DNA from: a virus
Virus genome (UHGV): UHGV-0179013
Strand: one strand, 5' to 3'
Length of the DNA stretch: 42,129 nucleotides
Shown here in pieces: positions 5,119-29,005 of the stretch (position 1 is the stretch's first letter; each line of letters begins with the position of its first letter). The position numbers and the translations under genes were made by a program. A model generated the notes under the pieces. The model saw only the letters and a program-made list of their open reading frames with translations. It had not been told where the DNA came from and ran no database searches.

Positions 5119-6200
5119 GTATTGAATCCCGCCAGGTTCTGGTAGAAGGCATATGGCTGAACGGCGAATGCTTCAGGCGGCATCAGCGTCATGCGTGCAT
5201 GGGTGCCGTAGTCATCGCGCATATAGGTGACTTCTGCCAGTAGCAATTCAGTCTCCGGCAACCGTAAGGTGGGAAGATCAACGGGGATCAATGTGTTTGG
5301 TTCCCACAGTTTCCCGTCTTTATCCCGCCAGGAATCGATGGTTACCGAGAGCTGTTTTGAACGTCCGTACCGCCGGTTCATTTCCCAGTCGATCGCACTT
5401 TGTGCCTGTTGAGTAGCCATCAGGGTACTTTCCACAATCGATATATGTTTTCGGTACCGCATACGGGCGGCCTCCGGATCTCTCGCCGTTGCCAGAGTCA
5501 CAGCGTCATAGGCCGTATCAGGCGAATACCCTGCAATTGGAGAAACGCTCATTGATACACCGACATAATCTGAAAACCTGTCAGCCATCGATTTGCGGTA
5601 GTATGCCTGCTCGACATTTACCCCTTCGGCTATCCCACTCGCCGCACGACGTGTTCCCACCCGGGTCAGTAACAGGTTTCCATCGGGCTGATCGTAGTAA
5701 AGCAGAGCAGACCATCTGGCCACCCGATCGATGACTTCTTGCGGAGACTCACCCCAGTTCAGAGTGAACTGGGGTACCTTCACAAGCTCATCAACATCCG
5801 TGGTTACGGTGATGCCGTAGTAGGATGCCAGGCGAGAAGCAATTTCAAGTGCATTACTGGCATTAATGACGTTGTTAGGCCACTCAGCTGAGCAATCCAC
5901 CAGGTCCTGACATTTGCTCCTGCCCGTGGCGCGGACCTCATGGCGGGAGCGCGATAGTGCGGGTTCCCAGTCATCAACATATCCCGTCAGTGTCAGATCA
6001 TCTCCGATACGAACTTCACAAGACATTCCCTCTTCAACGAGTTGACGATCTTCGTTGCCAGGGAAGTAATCCATTAGCCCAAGATCGAAATCAGAGGGAA
6101 AACGCTCAATACCCCGCGTTACCCGGACAGAATCCCACCCCTCGATGATTTTGCCGTCGACCGTCAAAGAAACAACATCCAGATCGCTGTCTGCATTCAT
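5115..6200 (-). CDS. Baseplate hub / tail protein (Mu gp44-like, P2 gpD-like)
   Basis: 361 aa; synteny between DNA-circulation-like gene and V-like gene. Confidence 0.45.
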   Translation of the reverse strand: MNADSDLDVVSLTVDGKIIEGWDSVRVTRGIERFPSDFDLGLMDYFPGNEDRQLVEEGMSCEVRIGDDLTLTGYVDDWEPALSRSRHEVRATGRSKCQDLVDCSAEWPNNVINASNALEIASRLASYYGITVTTDVDELVKVPQFTLNWGESPQEVIDRVARWSALLYYDQPDGNLLLTRVGTRRAASGIAEGVNVEQAYYRKSMADRFSDYVGVSMSVSPIAGYSPDTAYDAVTLATARDPEAARMRYRKHISIVESTLMATQQAQSAIDWEMNRRYGRSKQLSVTIDSWRDKDGKLWEPNTLIPVDLPTLRLPETELLLAEVTYMRDDYGTHARMTLMPPEAFAVQPYAFYQNLAGFNT

Positions 6201-7612: not shown

Positions 7613-7634
7613 AAAAAAAACCGCCACCTGGCGG
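7613..7634 (-). terminator. Intrinsic terminator between tape measure gene and baseplate genes
   Basis: Hairpin CCGCCAGGTGGCGG followed on the minus strand by a run of 8 T. Confidence 0.6.
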
Positions 7635-7665
7635 TTACCGTATATACAATGACAGTTGAAAATGA

Positions 7666-9603
7666 TCAGTAAGACATGGGTAACGTTATTCTTCCGCCAT
7701 CTTCGGCGCTGTATTCCCTTCGCCCTCCCTTCCCGTCGATCATGGTGATCTCAAGTTTCAATTTTTGCTCAGCCATCGCACTCATGAAGGAGCGCGTAAT
7801 ATTATCGGTAAGGGTCTTATCTGGTCCCGAACGCTGCAACTCTGGCTGAATGATTCCGTCTCCAGAGGATTGTTCGTTCACCGGACTGTCAGGGAAAGCA
7901 TCACTTTTCCCTTGTTGTGTTCTGAGTATCGTGGGTTCTTGATCCACGCCGCGTGATCCAGAGATAATGTCATACCGCTGCTGGGCCAGCACATCCGGAT
8001 TTCTCTTCCCTGACCACCGATCATCAGTAATGGCGGTCTGGATGGCGTTTAGCAGTTGTTCCTCAGTATAAGGTTGTGCGCCATTCTCATGTTTAATCAT
8101 GGCTGCCATTATCGTTTTTAATGTTTCCGGATCGTGCAGATTTACTTGCTCTTTGGCTCCATATCCAGTGGCTTTTGAGACGGAGTCAATATATGCACGA
8201 GTCTTATTCTCTGATTGCGGAGCATAGGTATGAATAATCCCATCCAGAGTATTATTCCCCCTGTCACCATACAACATCAGCTGTCTCGCCATTGCAGTTC
8301 TTCCGTCGGCATCATTCGCAAAGGTAGAAAATCCGCCATTTTTACCCGTTGCGTTTGCTGCAACCCTCAAATTACCGGGATTATTATTTCTGAAGCCAAT
8401 TGCGTTATTCCTTGTTTCCCCGTAAGGAACATTGCCGCGTGCAACGTTGGATTGTGGCTGGCTGATAGCGGATAAGTCATTCTGCAATTGAATCGCAGAA
8501 TCGGTCGCGCGGTAATTCGCATCGTACCGCTTTCTTACAGCATCAGTCATGAAACCCGCGTCAACCTGCCCACGTTCACTGCGGGGTAAGCTGTTATAAA
8601 GTTCCTTATCGTTCTGAATGCGCCGTAGTTTCTCAGCATCATTGCTGTTGATAAAACCGAGAGCATGAGACAGCCCAGTAAAATCACCATTAGTGAACAG
8701 ATCGGTAACACCTTCAAGGCCGTCTTTGACTGAACCATCCGAAAGAATGGTCTTAAGTGCCTTGTTTTTTGAACGTTGCCACAGACCATCCCAGGATGCG
8801 CTGAGCTCATTCATCGTTCCATTGATGTCGCTTAGTTCTTTATTAAGTTCAGGATCAATTGTTAGCCCAAACTCATCAGATTTAGCCAGCAGCGTTTTCA
8901 TGCGCTCACCTTCACGCATTAACGCCAACATTTCTGGCGTCAGCCCAAGAGCATCCGCTACGGACTTTTGTTGCTCAGGCCGCAACGAAGGGAAGACACG
9001 AGCAATCTCCTGTAATGTTTTTAGCGTATCAACAGAACCATCATTGTTTTTCTGTATCTGGACACCAATTTGTGCGAGAGCACCGAGCACCTGACCATTA
9101 GCGCCACTGGCAGCTTCTTTCAGCGTCTTAGCCATGCCATCAATAGAAGCATTTGCGCTTTCACTATCAGCACCGAGGATGCGCATAGCTCCAGCAAGAC
9201 GAGAATAGTCGTCTACACGCATTCCAGCATTTTTTGATGAAACGTCCAGGTTATATGCCTCCCTGGACGCTTCACGAAAGCCATAGGCAACTTGTTTGAG
9301 ACCGTACCCGGCTGCACCAACAATACCTAGTGACCCGAGTTTACCAGATAGCTCCCCTACCATTTTCAATGGAGGGACTATATCCCCGATAAACTGCACG
9401 TTATCCCTGGCACTTTTGGACAAATTTTCAAAACGTGAAATAAAGCCATTCAGCCCGTCAACTGTCTCCTGTCCACCTAACTGAAGCCCTTCTTTAGTTT
9501 TATCAAGCTTAGGTTCAAGACCTCGGATAGCTTCATTAATACGGTCAATAACATCACTGACCTGATCATTAGCCACCAGCTCAAAATCAAAGACATTACT
9601 CAT
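7666..9603 (-). CDS. Tail tape measure protein
   Basis: 645 aa, largest tail gene, located between the frameshifted chaperone and baseplate genes; low-complexity Ala/Gly/Ser-rich segments. Confidence 0.65.
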   Translation of the reverse strand: MSNVFDFELVANDQVSDVIDRINEAIRGLEPKLDKTKEGLQLGGQETVDGLNGFISRFENLSKSARDNVQFIGDIVPPLKMVGELSGKLGSLGIVGAAGYGLKQVAYGFREASREAYNLDVSSKNAGMRVDDYSRLAGAMRILGADSESANASIDGMAKTLKEAASGANGQVLGALAQIGVQIQKNNDGSVDTLKTLQEIARVFPSLRPEQQKSVADALGLTPEMLALMREGERMKTLLAKSDEFGLTIDPELNKELSDINGTMNELSASWDGLWQRSKNKALKTILSDGSVKDGLEGVTDLFTNGDFTGLSHALGFINSNDAEKLRRIQNDKELYNSLPRSERGQVDAGFMTDAVRKRYDANYRATDSAIQLQNDLSAISQPQSNVARGNVPYGETRNNAIGFRNNNPGNLRVAANATGKNGGFSTFANDADGRTAMARQLMLYGDRGNNTLDGIIHTYAPQSENKTRAYIDSVSKATGYGAKEQVNLHDPETLKTIMAAMIKHENGAQPYTEEQLLNAIQTAITDDRWSGKRNPDVLAQQRYDIISGSRGVDQEPTILRTQQGKSDAFPDSPVNEQSSGDGIIQPELQRSGPDKTLTDNITRSFMSAMAEQKLKLEITMIDGKGGRREYSAEDGGRITLPMSY

Positions 9604-21084: not shown

Positions 21085-21227
21085 CAAATCTGAAAGTTGT
21101 AGCTAGGAAAACACCGCGGCGCGCAATGCCCGTACCTTACAAAAGTCTCAGGAAGGACCCATTTTTTTAATGGCTTCGACCATTCGCTCCGACTATGATT
21201 ATTCCTATTCAATACAAGGAGAATGTA

Positions 21228-21731
21228 ATGGGTAACAATATAATCAAAATAACTTTCGTAGCCGCAGTGCTGGCATCACCAATTGCTCATGCCCAGTGGG
21301 TAACTAATACTGAAGATGACCTTTTCTCTGGTGGTAAGAAAGCAATGATGCTTGGCGAGGTTTCATCCGACAATGGCGCCATTGTGTTTGACTGCACTAA
21401 AGAAAAGCTATCGGCGGCATACGTTGAAATGGATAAAAGCACCGAATCACTATCAGAGGTACCAATGGACCTGATAATGAAGGTCGACGGGAATACCGCA
21501 GCGAAGCTCGATGCTACCCTTTCAAGACGTAATGTTCAGAGCCTCCAGATTCAATCGGATGACACGGACCAACTAAAAACAGTGCTTAAGCAGCTTCAGG
21601 GGGCGAAATCCAAAGTGTTAGTTGGTGTGCAAACAAAGGATGGCGGAAACCAGCATTCCATGTCAGCCAATGTTTCTGGATCGACAACTGCAGTAAACAG
21701 CTTCATAAAAGCTTGCGAAATTAGCTTATAA
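21228..21731 (+). CDS. Secreted/periplasmic protein of unknown function (moron); Sec signal peptide
   Basis: ATG at 21228 with AAGGAG RBS; N-terminus MGNNIIKITFVAAVLASPIAHA-QW has n/h/c regions and an AHA cleavage motif; plus strand within a minus-strand late region; AT-rich. Confidence 0.6.
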   Translation: MGNNIIKITFVAAVLASPIAHAQWVTNTEDDLFSGGKKAMMLGEVSSDNGAIVFDCTKEKLSAAYVEMDKSTESLSEVPMDLIMKVDGNTAAKLDATLSRRNVQSLQIQSDDTDQLKTVLKQLQGAKSKVLVGVQTKDGGNQHSMSANVSGSTTAVNSFIKACEISL

Positions 21732-22827: not shown

Positions 22828-22983
22828 TAACTCACCCTTTGCCTGAGCTAAGGCATCCTCAAGGGCGGCAATAATCTTTTGCTGTACGCCGTCCTTAATA
22901 TAACTCCTGCAGGCCACACCTTCAGATGTTTCATTATCACGCATCCAGATAACTTTGGAGTTGTGTTCAACTAAAATTTTCAT
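22786..22983 (-). CDS. Hypothetical small protein (65 aa)
   Basis: ATG with GGGG-containing RBS; 3' end overlaps the convergent plus-strand ORF by 42 nt, so one of the two may be wrong. Confidence 0.3.
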   Translation of the reverse strand: MKILVEHNSKVIWMRDNETSEGVACRSYIKDGVQQKIIAALEDALAQAKGELLCWNDSDAVSDIS

Positions 22984-23022
22984 GATTTTTACCCCGTCGT
23001 TAACAATGATAATAAAGCATTA

Positions 23023-23054
23023 TCGCAGACACTCAGGGAATGCCTGCTGTAATG
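23023..23054. repeat. 32-bp direct repeat copy R1 (TCGCAGACACTCAGGGAATGCCTGCTGTAATG)
   Basis: 30 of 32 identical to copy R2 at 24041-24072; both lie 2-6 nt downstream of a minus-strand stop codon. Confidence 0.7.
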
Positions 23055-23060
23055 TCGCGA

Positions 23061-23585
23061 TCAGCCAATCAACAATTCTGGCTGCGTCACCTGCATGATG
23101 TGCTCATGCTCCAGTGCCAGGACGCGCTTTTCCTTCTTGCGTTCGTTCATTAAACGACTGCCGATCGTGCCTTTCAGCTTCGAGCGTGTTTCTTTGATGG
23201 CATAGCGGTGCTGCATTTCTTCGCCCATCGCCATGCGTCGGCTAAGTTGTTCGGACATCCAGTTGAATGCTGAGATATAACTCTCTTTGATTGCTGCAGC
23301 AGCTCTCCCAGTGAATCCCATCACAACCATGATCCAGCCATCTCTTGTCAGGCTGTACATCGGGCGAACCTTACCCTGCTCATCGATATAATCAGCCGAC
23401 GCAAAATTGCGTTGGCCAAACTCACTCGAGCAATCGGACTTAACCTGCTCGATTTTCCTGAGCACATCGCCGTGTCGCTTGCCGAAGTACTTGGCAACTT
23501 TTCTGGAAGTGGTGACGACCTCTCCGTTTTTGGCTTGCACCATTTCGCGGAAGTCGAAGGCCGGAATAACTGACGGATTATTCAT
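23061..23585 (-). CDS. Rha-family phage regulatory protein
   Basis: About 174 aa from ATG at 23585 (MNNPSVIPAFDFREMV ... TSRKVAKYFGKRHGDVLRKIEQ), pattern typical of the Rha N-terminal domain. Confidence 0.65.
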   Translation of the reverse strand: MNNPSVIPAFDFREMVQAKNGEVVTTSRKVAKYFGKRHGDVLRKIEQVKSDCSSEFGQRNFASADYIDEQGKVRPMYSLTRDGWIMVVMGFTGRAAAAIKESYISAFNWMSEQLSRRMAMGEEMQHRYAIKETRSKLKGTIGSRLMNERKKEKRVLALEHEHIMQVTQPELLIG

Positions 23586-23730
23586 AGCGTTTTTACCTTT
23601 TAGAAAGATGAGCCTGTTCGCACAGAAAAGCCGCCCCGAGATGGTCGCCACCATATACGGCAGTTCTCAGGCTCAGCTTTCTGAAAGACTCGGGATTGTC
23701 ATGCGCTGCGATGCGCGGTTTACTGCTGGT

Positions 23731-23756
23731 ATAAAAAAGCCTCGCAATTGCGAGGC
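23731..23756 (-). terminator. Intrinsic terminator (hairpin GCCTCGCAATTGCGAGGC followed by T6)
   Basis: Perfect 7-bp stem with 4-nt loop followed on the minus strand by TTTTTTAT; 26 nt downstream of the zinc-ribbon ORF stop. Confidence 0.7.
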
Positions 23757-23781
23757 CTGGGGTTATTTGTATCGCGACCCA

Positions 23782-23946
23782 CTACCTGTGAATGACAAAC
23801 AGAGATTTACATTTAGGGCAAAGTAACGCCTGTTGTTGGCGTACTTTCGTGGTCGAGTGTGTGGATTTATGTCCGCATATCGGGCACATGACAGTCGTAT
23901 TGGCTGCAAGCCCAACACGCTGCATTGCATAATCGAAAAATGACAT
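23782..23946 (-). CDS. Unannotated small zinc-ribbon protein (54 aa): MSFFDYAMQRVGLAANTTVMCPICGHKSTHSTTKVRQQQALLCPKCKSLFVIHR
   Basis: Hand-translated ORF below the 60-aa cutoff of the ORF track; CPxC-N18-CPxC motif; followed by a strong intrinsic terminator. Confidence 0.45.
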   Translation of the reverse strand: MSFFDYAMQRVGLAANTTVMCPICGHKSTHSTTKVRQQQALLCPKCKSLFVIHR

Positions 23947-24040
23947 GGTGGTTAACCTTTCAATGAATGGGGCTTATTATACCATGCATAGCTCAATTAT
24001 TAATCAATCATCATCGCATGCTTGATGCCATTTAGCTTTG

Positions 24041-24072
24041 TCGCAGGCACTCAGTGAATGCCTGCTGTAATG
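24041..24072. repeat. 32-bp direct repeat copy R2 (TCGCAGGCACTCAGTGAATGCCTGCTGTAATG); contains internal inverted repeat CAGGCA-N9-TGCCTG
   Basis: See R1; copy lies 2 nt after the stop of the 24075-24368 gene. Confidence 0.7.
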
Positions 24073-24074
24073 CC

Positions 24075-24368
24075 TTACTCTTCAACCGCCGCACCTTCCG
24101 GCAACTCAACACAACCAAAGACAGGCATACCCGGCGAACGGTCATCTTCCACCGCTACCAGTTGCGATTCGGAATACCAGCGCTCAGTCGCACATTTATT
24201 GGCGGCCTGGTAGTAAATAAAGTACTGGTTCTCACCTGTCACATGCTGGGAGCGGGCCTGTACCTCGCCGAACTCATCACTAATGCGCAAGTTCACTAGT
24301 TGCCCAAGACAGAATTTAAAGTCTTTTGCTACAGGAAAGATTGCAGCGCCGTTTTGTTCTTTTTCCAT
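24075..24368 (-). CDS. Hypothetical phage protein (97 aa) downstream of lysis cassette
   Basis: ORF with start after the Rz terminator; function not recognised. Confidence 0.4.
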   Translation of the reverse strand: MEKEQNGAAIFPVAKDFKFCLGQLVNLRISDEFGEVQARSQHVTGENQYFIYYQAANKCATERWYSESQLVAVEDDRSPGMPVFGCVELPEGAAVEE

Positions 24369-24380
24369 TACTCCCTCTCT

Positions 24381-24409
24381 TATTGTTAAAGAACCCCGCT
24401 ATTGCGAGG
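24381..24409 (-). terminator. Intrinsic terminator at end of lysis cassette (hairpin CCTCGCAATAGCGGGG plus T-rich tail)
   Basis: Hairpin shares the GCCTCGCAAT core with the terminators at 23739 and 25877; Rz stop codon lies inside the stem. Confidence 0.5.
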
Positions 24410-25870: not shown

Positions 25871-25896
25871 GAAAAAGCCCCGCAGAATTGCGAGGC
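25871..25896 (-). terminator. Intrinsic terminator-like hairpin upstream of holin (candidate tR'-like element)
   Basis: Minus-strand hairpin GCCTCGCAATTCTGCGGGGC followed by TTTTTC; third member of the GCCTCGCAAT hairpin family. Confidence 0.45.
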
Positions 25897-25985
25897 TTTA
25901 TATTTTTGGAAGATTAGATCGACGATATGACAGGGGTACTGGTGCTATGCACCTCGCGAATACCCCTGTCGTATCGCCGGAAAGC

Positions 25986-26092: not shown

Positions 26093-26127
26093 CAATGAAT
26101 AACATGCTAATAAGCAAGGATAAGGCG

Positions 26128-27213
26128 ATGGCGAGTGTAGACTTTAGCTTTGAAGGACTTCTAATAGAGAGAATTATCGCACACAGAGTTTTTCCTAAAA
26201 GTGCTGATAAAACCTTAACTCCCCCAAAAACCAGCAAATTTTTAATGGCATTCAAACAAGATGCATTAGATGCTTTTCAGGTGAGGATTACTGAGGCCTT
26301 AGCAAGTAAATCTCATGGAATTGAAATGTCTATTGGTGGTGTTGGTGATGATTGTTTTTTGAATCTGTCGGCTTCAACGTTTTCTAATGATACAGAGCAC
26401 TTCATCAAGGTTACAGAACGACTTGCAAGTAAACTTAGCGAGGCACAATACAACAGTTCTGCCCCTGGTGGGATATTGGCTGTATTGTCAGGGCGCGTAG
26501 GAAATGACTCACTTCCATTCCTTGCGGTAATAAAAGCTGAAACCCAAAATGGTTTTAGAACTATTGAAAATGATGAGCAGGTGACAATGGAGTTTATTGC
26601 TGAGCTTCTTTTAACTCCAGCGCAACGTTTTTATAAGATTGGTTTTATAGTCCAAACTATTGCTTTACCTCCTGATAGTGATGGTAATTATAGCAGCTCA
26701 TCTTATCGTGCATTTTTGTTTGACCATTTAATGACATCGACAGAAACAAAAAACGCCGCCGGATATTTCTACTCTCGATTTTTAGATATGGATATAAGCA
26801 AATCATCAAAAAAACTTACTCAAGATTTTTTTGAGAATACTAGGGACTTCATTAATACCGCACAAATAGAGGAAAGTAATAAACTTGCGCTGCATGAGGC
26901 TTTAAGAAGTGAAATGCGCTCAAGAAAGACCACATTAAGCACTGCGGATTTCGCAGAAACCAACCTCCCAGAAGAAATGCAGGGGGAGTATTTGGATTTT
27001 ATGAAGAACAAAAGCTTCCCTGCTGCCGCAGTAACTAAAGACAATGGTTATATTGAATCCAAATTAAAAATAAGAAGCAAGCTCGTATTCTCCAATGATG
27101 TATGGGTTTCCGTACCGCCAGATCAATTAAAAAATCTTGTGGAAATTATCCCGTCGGATGATAATGAATCAACGATTTTGAAAATAAAAGGGCGACTTAA
27201 AAGTCAACAATAA
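26128..27213 (+). CDS. Cassette gene A: 361-aa protein with YejK/NdpA (NA37 nucleoid-associated protein)-like features
   Basis: ATG at 26128 behind AAGGATAAGG RBS (ORF-track start 26095 lacks an RBS). Segments SAPGGILAVLSGRVGNDSLPFLAVIKAE and C-terminal ESTILKIKGR parallel E. coli YejK ([40 protein letters not shown]). Very AT-rich; stop overlaps gene B start (TAATG). Confidence 0.45.
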   Translation: MASVDFSFEGLLIERIIAHRVFPKSADKTLTPPKTSKFLMAFKQDALDAFQVRITEALASKSHGIEMSIGGVGDDCFLNLSASTFSNDTEHFIKVTERLASKLSEAQYNSSAPGGILAVLSGRVGNDSLPFLAVIKAETQNGFRTIENDEQVTMEFIAELLLTPAQRFYKIGFIVQTIALPPDSDGNYSSSSYRAFLFDHLMTSTETKNAAGYFYSRFLDMDISKSSKKLTQDFFENTRDFINTAQIEESNKLALHEALRSEMRSRKTTLSTADFAETNLPEEMQGEYLDFMKNKSFPAAAVTKDNGYIESKLKIRSKLVFSNDVWVSVPPDQLKNLVEIIPSDDNESTILKIKGRLKSQQ

Positions 27214-28205
27214 TGGATATCAATGAGTTCCGTGAGTTTTTACAGGCAAACCAGGATGCTTACGCAGCTTGGGGGCAGTTTGTGTCTGAAGAAATTTACA
27301 GTACTCTTTGTAGCTCTCTAGGGGATGACAAAGCCAAGCTCTTTCTAAAGATCCACTCAGAACCAAGACTAAAAAGTATAGCCTCGGCATTAGGAAAGGT
27401 CAGCCGTAAAGGATATGACAATCCAGTAGTGCAAATGACTGATTTGATTGGTGTACGCTTTGTAGTTCTACTCTCTGTTGAAATCAGAGCTATCAGTGAA
27501 ATAATTGAAAACTGTGATAAATGGGATGCGACTGTTTCTAAAGACTATTTATCAGAGATTGATGTTAACCCCAAAATTTTTGACTATCAATCGCGGCATT
27601 ATGAGGTAAGGCCTAAAGCTCAATTCGATTACTGTGGACAAAGCATAACGCCTGAAATGTGCTGCGAAGTTCAAGTTAGAACATTGCTTCAGCATGCCTA
27701 TGCTGAATTAGTCCATGATAGCGTCTACAAGCCTTCCGGTGATGTACCAAAATCTGCTGAAAGGCAAATAGCGCGTAGCATGGCCTTAATGGAAACAACG
27801 GATGATCTTTTTTGCAAAACAATGGAAATCTTGGCTGACAATAGCAAAGAGAGAAATGAGCTTTTAGAATTTCTTTCAGGATATTACGCAGAAAAAATAG
27901 GGAGGCAGTATATTGATGAAGATTTGCATGTTAACTTCTCCGTCATTGACACCTTTAAAGACCACATTGACGACAACTTACCAAATAAAATACACACACT
28001 TCTCAGTGAGAAAAAATACATCTCTGCACGGATAATTAATAGAGTTGAATACAATCCTCTATTCACTCAACCATGTATATTATTTGTGTACTGGTTAGCA
28101 AGCCAGATAGACTCAGGGGAAATGCTTTCAACATGGCCCCTGCCGGGCAATATTAGTGGGCTGGAGATGGTGCTAAGTGATTTAGGGAAAAGTATTTCTC
28201 GTTAG
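27213..28205 (+). CDS. Cassette gene B: RelA/SpoT-type nucleotide pyrophosphokinase (synthetase-fold) domain protein with about 150-aa C-terminal extension of unknown function; candidate toxSAS-like effector
   Basis: Synthetase motifs in order: RLKSIASALGKVSRK, DLIGVRFVV, DYQSRHYEV, EVQVRTLLQHAYAELVHDSVYK; compare RelQ RVKSPESIIEKLERK, DIAGLRVV, GYRSYHLVV, EIQIRTLAMNFWATIEHSLNYK. Translationally coupled to gene A. Confidence 0.7.
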   Translation: MDINEFREFLQANQDAYAAWGQFVSEEIYSTLCSSLGDDKAKLFLKIHSEPRLKSIASALGKVSRKGYDNPVVQMTDLIGVRFVVLLSVEIRAISEIIENCDKWDATVSKDYLSEIDVNPKIFDYQSRHYEVRPKAQFDYCGQSITPEMCCEVQVRTLLQHAYAELVHDSVYKPSGDVPKSAERQIARSMALMETTDDLFCKTMEILADNSKERNELLEFLSGYYAEKIGRQYIDEDLHVNFSVIDTFKDHIDDNLPNKIHTLLSEKKYISARIINRVEYNPLFTQPCILFVYWLASQIDSGEMLSTWPLPGNISGLEMVLSDLGKSISR

Positions 28206-28244: not shown

Positions 28245-28673
28245 TTAAAAGTCTAACATGGCAATGCATCCATCTACGAACCCCATTGCCGTCTGTAGTT
28301 CCTTTCTTATAGTCCCATCAGAGCACTTTCGCTTTTTAGCAATGGATCTCAACGAGATACCGATAACGAAGTGGGCAACAATCAATTCATATTCATCAGG
28401 CTTATATTTACGTAAGCGAGCCACACATCCATCAATCATGATTCCCTCATCGTCATCACACTGAAGTCGTGATTTCTTACCATGAGGTAAAAGTCCCTTG
28501 AATCCAGCTGCAATGGGTTGCCAGTCGACACCACTACTATCGGCTGCCGCCCATGCTCCCCATAAATCCATCACTTCATACATATCACGCATTGCAATTT
28601 CTCTTTCGTCTTCTCTGCTTAAAGGGTTAGCTCCCTGAGGGCTGAAATGTTTGAGTGATGCTTCCAGTTTCAT
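28245..28673 (-). CDS. Q-like late-gene antitermination protein
   Basis: About 142 aa from ATG at 28673; C-terminal region LIVAHFVIGISLRSIAKKRKCSDGTIRKELQTAMGFVDGCIAM resembles the region-4-like HTH of phage 82/21-type Q proteins; last gene of the early operon after replication genes. Confidence 0.55.
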   Translation of the reverse strand: MKLEASLKHFSPQGANPLSREDEREIAMRDMYEVMDLWGAWAAADSSGVDWQPIAAGFKGLLPHGKKSRLQCDDDEGIMIDGCVARLRKYKPDEYELIVAHFVIGISLRSIAKKRKCSDGTIRKELQTAMGFVDGCIAMLDF

Positions 28674-29005
28674 TGGATAGTGCCTCCCTTCTCGGCAGTG
28701 CCAAACCAGCCAGGATGCGCCCACTGAATATCGGTAACTTTATGGCCTTTCCCCCATAGCGATATCGAACGCATTGCAACGTAGTGCATAAATATTTTTT
28801 CCCGCTCAAGCCATTCATCCTCAGGCTTATCTTCAAGAAACTCATCGATTGCATCAGCAATAAGGCCAAAGCATTCGGGATAGTCGCTATGACTGATATC
28901 TATGTCTCGTACAGCATCCTGGAGTTCCATGAAGCGCTTTTGGGTGAATAAATAAGACATTTCGTGAATTAGACGATCCATTATTGGTTCCTTAAGCTTT
29001 TGCAT
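28670..29005 (-). CDS. Hypothetical phage protein (nin-region position)
   Basis: About 111 aa from ATG at 29005 (longer ORF-track start would overlap the DnaB-like gene). Confidence 0.35.
   Translation of the reverse strand: MQKLKEPIMDRLIHEMSYLFTQKRFMELQDAVRDIDISHSDYPECFGLIADAIDEFLEDKPEDEWLEREKIFMHYVAMRSISLWGKGHKVTDIQWAHPGWFGTAEKGGTIQ

Follow-up and report, generated by a model that had tools for sequence, protein, structure and literature searches.

A YnfU-Family Zinc-Ribbon Gene Carried as a Probable Moron Cassette between the Lysis and Packaging Genes of a Lambdoid Prophage

The best-described relative of the gene considered here is YnfU of Escherichia coli K-12, a 56-aa protein of the Qin cryptic prophage that was found by Ribo-RET, confirmed by tagging and western blotting, and noted to carry two CPXC zinc knuckles; it is abundant in uninduced cells, and the tagged form outranked every other newly found small protein in abundance (bioRxiv 10.1101/511675). 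It was detected again by PIRT-seq (PMC12350097). A second point of reference is the moron, an additional gene that brings along both a promoter and a terminator and so can be expressed from a repressed prophage (PMC3594210). Two groups of small zinc proteins offer further comparisons. Ogr and Delta (PF04606) are phage-borne Cys4 proteins of P2-like phages, with a first knuckle similar to that of the protein described below. Lar (TIGR03655 and PF14354) and the gyrase inhibitor YacG resemble YnfU in being small solitary zinc ribbons, and act by binding a host enzyme.

The window analyzed here is the whole 42,129-nucleotide stretch of UHGV virus genome UHGV-0179013. Its minus-strand open reading frame at 23782..23946 (54 codons plus TAG) encodes exactly the 54-aa peptide to which a preliminary description had drawn attention, and the CPxC-N18-CPxC motif reported there, read from 23946 to 23782, consists of C21-P-I-C24, 18 residues, and C43-P-K-C46. 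The product is basic, with a pI of 9.7. Profile searches for zinc-ribbon families, also proposed in that description, gave matches above the cutoffs of both family models: 72.9 bits versus 36 for NCBIfam NF038384 (residues 1 to 53, profile positions 1 to 51 of 52) and 32.3 bits versus 27 for Pfam PF23499 (YnfU). With two CPxC knuckles spaced by 18 residues and a length near 55 aa, the peptide has the features of the YnfU family. An identical protein from E. coli EC2641 (WP_213090494.1) carries the RefSeq/PGAP name "YnfU family zinc-binding protein," and the protein collection contains the exact sequence on 327 contigs, chiefly of Citrobacter and E. coli. The gene had been called unannotated, which holds for the open reading frame track behind the preliminary description and for some GenBank phage records (e.g., Citrobacter phage Chris1) but not for RefSeq/PGAP. 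It is almost certainly an already named member of the YnfU family, not a new gene.

The predicted structure of the peptide (pLDDT 67.7) is that of a zinc ribbon, in which an N-terminal helix (residues 3 to 11) is joined to four short strands bearing the two knuckles. The conserved Cys4 pattern and this model suggest that the four cysteines would bind one zinc. Two other readings of the coding region were set aside. An overlapping 55-aa frame on the same strand (23763..23930) is unconserved and has stops in other loci, and translation from Met8 is unlikely because residues 1 to 10 are conserved and a Shine-Dalgarno sequence precedes the first ATG.

An exhaustive profile search of 1.84 billion proteins (E of 0.001 or better) returned 51 representatives, making this a narrow family. 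In the alignment of short members, the CPxC-X18-CPxC pattern was free of gaps down to about 27% identity; S28, a K or R at position 34, F50, and a pair of hydrophobic residues ahead of the second knuckle were also kept. Genomic context was compared across 35 loci from Citrobacter, Kluyvera, Phytobacter, Raoultella, Silvania, Buttiauxella, Erwinia, Pantoea, Dryocola, and Klebsiella. Every locus had an intact frame of 53 to 57 codons with an AGG or GAGG motif 8 to 11 nt upstream of the start, and the YnfU frame was the single frame open across all 35. Synonymous sites were near saturation (mean pS, 0.73), and the median Nei-Gojobori dN/dS was 0.16 over 174 usable pairs, a figure from a simple pairwise method applied to 54 codons in which many pairs were saturated. 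In several close pairs of YnfU genes, pN was 0 at a pS of 0.03 to 0.15. The preliminary description had named lack of a translation signal and lack of conserved cysteine pairs as the findings that would count against the gene; a Shine-Dalgarno-like motif was found in 35/35 loci, and the cysteine pairs were kept. By sequence, the pattern is far beyond chance, and the gene is real and under purifying selection.

An alignment of K-12 YnfU (b4776) with the peptide spanned the two knuckles with no gap, at 40% identity over 30 aa (E = 2e-8). The two proteins share a length of about 55 aa and the CPxC-X18-CPxC motif, and their genes are both prophage cargo near lysis genes, each followed by its own terminator. 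They differ at the N terminus, which is basic and unstructured in the K-12 protein (MSERKNSKSRRNY...) and forms a conserved MSFFDYAMxR helix in the type found in the window. They also differ in placement: K-12 ynfU lies between Q/cspB and the holin gene, antisense to the late operon, whereas the window gene follows a spanin-like gene in the sense orientation. Because it is antisense to the late operon, the K-12 copy needs its own promoter. A second YnfU paralog in five loci (L001 to L004 and L006) is likewise antisense to the late operon, which implies independent transcription there as well. Many prophages carry two YnfU genes of different subtypes, one K-12-like and often antisense and the other of the MSFF type; examples are the genes at 5381..5554 (−) in L002 to L004 and L006 and at 7617..7814 (+) in L009. 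The coexistence of the two subtypes suggests that their roles are not redundant.

The window itself is a mosaic lambdoid prophage that reads on the minus strand in the order Q antiterminator, holin, lysozyme, a 180-aa spanin-like open reading frame, a 97-aa open reading frame, YnfU, Rha, and a GpA-type terminase. The Q antiterminator gene (28245..28724) lies upstream of the lysis genes and matched PF06530 with 155.6 bits. Several neighbors merit description in their own right. The 97-aa frame (24075..24368, minus strand), directly after the spanin-like gene, is annotated as hypothetical, had no Pfam or PADLOC match, and has conserved counterparts, 97% identical in DNA, in a prophage of E. coli O157:H16 (L056) and in L007. 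Between Q and the holin gene lies a low-GC (38.7%) two-gene insert (26095..28205, plus strand), antisense to the late operon, whose products are a 372-aa NA37-like nucleoid-associated protein and a 330-aa protein with a RelA/SpoT domain; the second of these matches PADLOC candidate PDC-S33. This insert may be defense or toxin cargo of the alarmone-synthetase type. A 178-aa frame with a signal-peptide-like N terminus and no Pfam match (21195..21731, plus strand) lies antisense between the Rha region and the small terminase gene; its gene also occurs in L012 and L013 (cluster c41), and it is probably another moron.

Upstream of the window gene is a predicted sigma-70-type promoter at 23976..24003 (minus strand), with 10 of 12 consensus matches plus a TG extension. 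Its −35 element, TTAATA (24003..23998), is separated by a 16-nt spacer from the −10 element, TATAAT (23981..23976), which is extended by the TG at 23984..23983 and places the predicted transcript start near 23969. This promoter and the terminator described below are computational calls. Across the 35 loci, representing 10 genera, there were 33 distinct upstream sequences; in 27 of them the pattern TGnTAnnnT started at position −38 or −39 relative to the ATG. The pattern occurred only twice elsewhere in the 80 nt examined, and upstream of about −45 the sequences of different lineages were unrelated. The fixed position of the −10 element, the unrelated sequence beyond about −45, and the near-saturated synonymous sites together imply that the element is the gene's own and has been maintained by selection.

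Between the predicted transcript start and the ATG is a leader of about 22 to 23 nt (23947..23969, minus strand) with the motif cATTCATTGAAAGG, which is conserved across loci and includes the Shine-Dalgarno sequence AAAGG at 23960..23956, 9 nt before the ATG. The leader is unstructured, folding no better than shuffled sequences. A different conserved motif, GGATAACTTGTGCGCTATTT, lies at about −62 to −43 from the ATG of Buttiauxella chromosomal homologs (L020, L023 to L029, and L033 to L035), just 5′ of the extended −10 element, and could be an operator for some regulator. A reading of this region as a sigma-28 promoter was rejected: candidate sigma-28 (FliA) promoters upstream of chromosomal homologs near methyl-accepting chemotaxis protein (MCP) or fli genes scored 13/16 at best and were scattered in position.

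Downstream of the gene, the preliminary description had placed a perfect hairpin followed by a T6 tract, and this predicted intrinsic terminator was confirmed as a sequence feature at 23733..23758 (minus strand). The perfect 7-bp core, GCCTCGC/GCGAGGC (23756..23750 and 23745..23739, with an AATT loop), begins at the 26th nucleotide after the stop codon, as had been stated. The stem extends to 9 bp (23758..23737), and the T6 tract occupies 23738..23733. Its predicted folding energy was −18.7 kcal/mol (z = −3.55), with none of 200 shuffles as stable. An Rfam scan of 22900..24400 gave sub-threshold matches alone, reflecting this hairpin. The terminator is part of a module that is 99.7% identical in L005, L008, and L009. 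In L001 to L004, identity stops at the stop codon, so that version is without this terminator. In about 16 of 37 loci, among them that of K-12, the homolog is followed by a strong terminator whose hairpin is unrelated in sequence. Upstream of the holin gene in the window, a terminator-like hairpin at 25872..25898 (minus strand; AAGCCTCGCAATTCTGCGGGGCTTTTT) closely resembles the YnfU terminator (AGGCCTCGCAATTGCGAGGCTTTTTT) and may be a terminator that is overridden by Q-modified polymerase.

The gene and its signals form part of a larger unit. A 345-bp segment (23731..24075, minus strand), comprising a boundary hairpin, the promoter, the leader, the gene, and the terminator, is found again, at least 99.7% identical, in L005, L008, and L009, where its flanks are unrelated and contain different lysis cassettes and terminases. 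The identical YnfU protein is encoded beside three lysis cassettes (holin_2/lysozyme/DUF2514, holin_3_1/CHAP, and holin_8/holin_3_7/GH19) and at least four packaging modules, as defined by terminase type. The GC content of the unit is 44.6%, a modest difference from the 50 to 51% of flanking genes.

At the left edge of this unit, where identity to other prophages begins, is a 32-nt boundary element (CATTACAGCAGGCATTCACTGAGTGCCTGCGA; 24041..24072, minus strand). It contains a 10-bp hairpin (stem, 24065..24043) without a T-run, with a folding energy of −19 kcal/mol (z = −3.95), and had no Rfam match. A second copy (23023..23054, minus strand) lies just after the Rha stop codon, closes the next module, and keeps the hairpin by means of a G-U wobble. 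In all, 19 copies were found in the window and 14 prophage loci, all on the late-operon strand and with at least nine different left flanks; loci with the element include L001 to L009, L011 to L014, L043, and L056. Variants mostly keep their pairing through G-U or compensatory A-U changes, and the elements sit at junctions between cargo modules downstream of lysis genes. An empty site was provided by the E. coli O157:H16 prophage (L056), which has the same 97-aa gene and hairpin followed by a different gene, without YnfU. When the window was compared with this empty site and with other YnfU prophages, the switch in homology fell inside the boundary hairpin, which is what a module-boundary sequence where lambdoid mosaics recombine would look like. 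The element is a candidate recombination linker, RNA element, or both.

Measured against described morons, the unit has most of the expected properties. The gene is present in some related phages, amid unrelated neighbors, and absent from others, as at the empty site in L056; its base composition differs modestly from that of the flanking genes; it has a strong predicted consensus promoter whose extended −10 element is held in position in 27 of 33 upstream sequences; and it has its own predicted terminator in the window copy, a feature that varies among other copies. In these respects, and in its known cargo position downstream of lysis genes, it resembles lambdoid morons such as HK97 gene 15 and lambda bor, which are extra genes of some relatives with their own promoter and terminator and a lower GC content. 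It differs in that its product is unrelated to characterized moron proteins and in that some versions have a replaced or missing terminator. We consider it quite probable that the unit is a moron cassette, with expression predicted in the lysogen.

Beyond the window, 11 of the 35 loci (L011 to L019, L043, and L044) had prophage contexts and most of the remainder had no phage markers; these context statistics cover a few dozen loci that are in part related by descent. The usual neighbors of YnfU in prophages were Csp, YmcF, and GnsA/B genes. In about nine Buttiauxella species, YnfU follows genes for a Ysc84-like lipoprotein and an MCP in conserved synteny; MCP genes were also near homologs in Erwinia and Dryocola, and fliF/fliE precede the homolog in two loci. 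Pfam contexts of distant members included CsbD, fliCDST, and IraP (L048), Mn-catalase and DUF892 (L047), YmgB (L049 and L055), and Usp, GhoT, and a DksA-like gene (L055). Three other distant members (L050 to L052) were part of prophage cargo, with BON and YnaE genes nearby. A giant gene for a GH94 cyclic beta-glucan synthase lies beside non-phage homologs from several genera (L047, L049, L053, and L054), and such a neighbor is also probable at L022 to L024, L030, and L031. Runs of spurious small open reading frames downstream of homologs in Buttiauxella and Erwinia loci were the GH94 gene running off the end of the locus; an rRNA operon, considered as another source of these runs, was rejected, with no Rfam match. 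No partner gene was constant across YnfU contexts. These contexts suggest a solitary small protein that acts on a conserved host target and is possibly linked to stress.

The explanation that we find likely as a whole is a YnfU moron cassette that is expressed in the lysogen and directed at the host. The zinc ribbon would be encoded by an autonomous accessory cassette in the cargo region between the lysis and packaging genes of a Citrobacter-type lambdoid prophage, and the cassette would be exchanged between otherwise unrelated prophages at the hairpin-containing boundary sequence. In the lysogen, host sigma-70 RNA polymerase would transcribe the cassette from its own promoter, and the terminator would halt this transcription before the downstream Rha gene. 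After induction, read-through by Q-modified polymerase would place the gene in the late transcript as well. With less confidence, we propose that the basic zinc ribbon and the conserved N-terminal helix may bind a host macromolecule conserved across Enterobacterales, and that the effect may be on host physiology, possibly related to stress, rather than on phage development. This host-target mechanism, proposed because homologs are also found as solitary chromosomal genes surrounded by small stress and motility genes and because a constant partner gene is lacking, is tentative, and we give it somewhat less than an even chance. A broader version, in which the YnfU family is a host-derived zinc-ribbon regulator of Enterobacterales linked to stress or motility that was repeatedly captured by lambdoid phages, spread as a promoter-bearing cassette swapped at a conserved RNA-hairpin boundary, and tunes a conserved host pathway in the lysogen, is speculative and on present evidence less likely than not.

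Two alternatives would give the protein a role in the phage's own development. The preliminary description had likened the peptide to Ogr and Delta and raised the possibility of a late-gene regulator, and the peptide is indeed a small Cys4 protein in a prophage whose first knuckle, CPxCxH, resembles the CPLCQH of Ogr. However, that resemblance did not extend further. On PF04606, P2 Ogr, used as a positive control after its sequence was verified at 100% identity in P2-like phages, scored 76.9 bits, and no PF04606 match was listed for the YnfU peptide. BLASTP aligned only the first knuckle with Ogr (5/14 residues), and hhalign of the YnfU family profile gave a probability of 6.5%, with two gaps needed to align the cysteines. 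The cysteine layout of Ogr is C-X2-C-X22-C-X4-C, compared with an invariable CPxC-X18-CPxC in the YnfU family, so that the two differ in spacing and in the second knuckle, and they differ as well in profile, genomic position, and phage type: the window has a lambdoid layout with Q (PF06530) rather than the activator-dependent late genes of a P2-type phage. YnfU homologs also exist outside prophages, the K-12 copy, which runs antisense to the late operon, is produced in uninduced cells, and the window gene, being absent from closely related prophages, is dispensable. An Ogr/Delta-like activator of phage late transcription is therefore extremely improbable. In the other alternative, the gene would be a passenger of the late operon, with a nonfunctional promoter-like site, made in lytic growth only and acting in lysis or packaging. 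The orientation of the window gene, in line with the late operon between the spanin-like and packaging genes, fits such a role, but the −10 element is at a fixed position across genera, other copies are antisense to the late operon or outside prophages, and related phages are without the gene; we regard this reading as very unlikely, if less so than the Ogr-like one.

Two further alternatives keep the action of YnfU in the host cell. An anti-host, anti-defense, or exclusion factor, the first of which the preliminary description had also suggested, would inhibit a host enzyme in the way of Lar or YacG or block superinfecting phages. Morons often encode exclusion or defense functions (PMC3594210), the same prophage holds another candidate defense insert, two YnfU paralogs are often found in one prophage, and the Lar and YacG models gave weak matches below threshold. 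Those matches were far under the family cutoffs, at 14.3 bits versus 39.6 (TIGR03655) and 14.5 versus 28.6 (PF14354) for Lar, placing the peptide outside that family, and at 10.9 versus 83 for YacG. YnfU had no PADLOC match, and the stable synteny of chromosomal homologs in Buttiauxella and Erwinia is easier to reconcile with housekeeping or stress than with an arms race, as is the strong purifying selection without diversification. By analogy, the Lar/YacG mode of action is a plausible model for YnfU, but a dedicated anti-host or exclusion factor appears unlikely. A zinc ribbon associated with translation or the ribosome and linked to cold or stress adaptation is a slightly less likely proposal again, ranking above the late-operon passenger.

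The gene itself adds little, since RefSeq already names the identical protein and the K-12 relative is a documented small protein, and the guess of an Ogr/Delta-type late regulator can be set aside. What was worked out here, with the classification unchanged, is the extent of the cassette, the conserved extended −10 element, the boundary hairpin, and the occurrence of non-phage homologs. YnfU is among the better-expressed uncharacterized small proteins of E. coli, and its function could be approached through the conserved promoter and leader motif, through the boundary hairpin, or through those chromosomal homologs that lie in stress-gene islands. As read from its sequence, the anatomy of the cassette suggests that proteins of the YnfU family are made in lysogens and act on the host.
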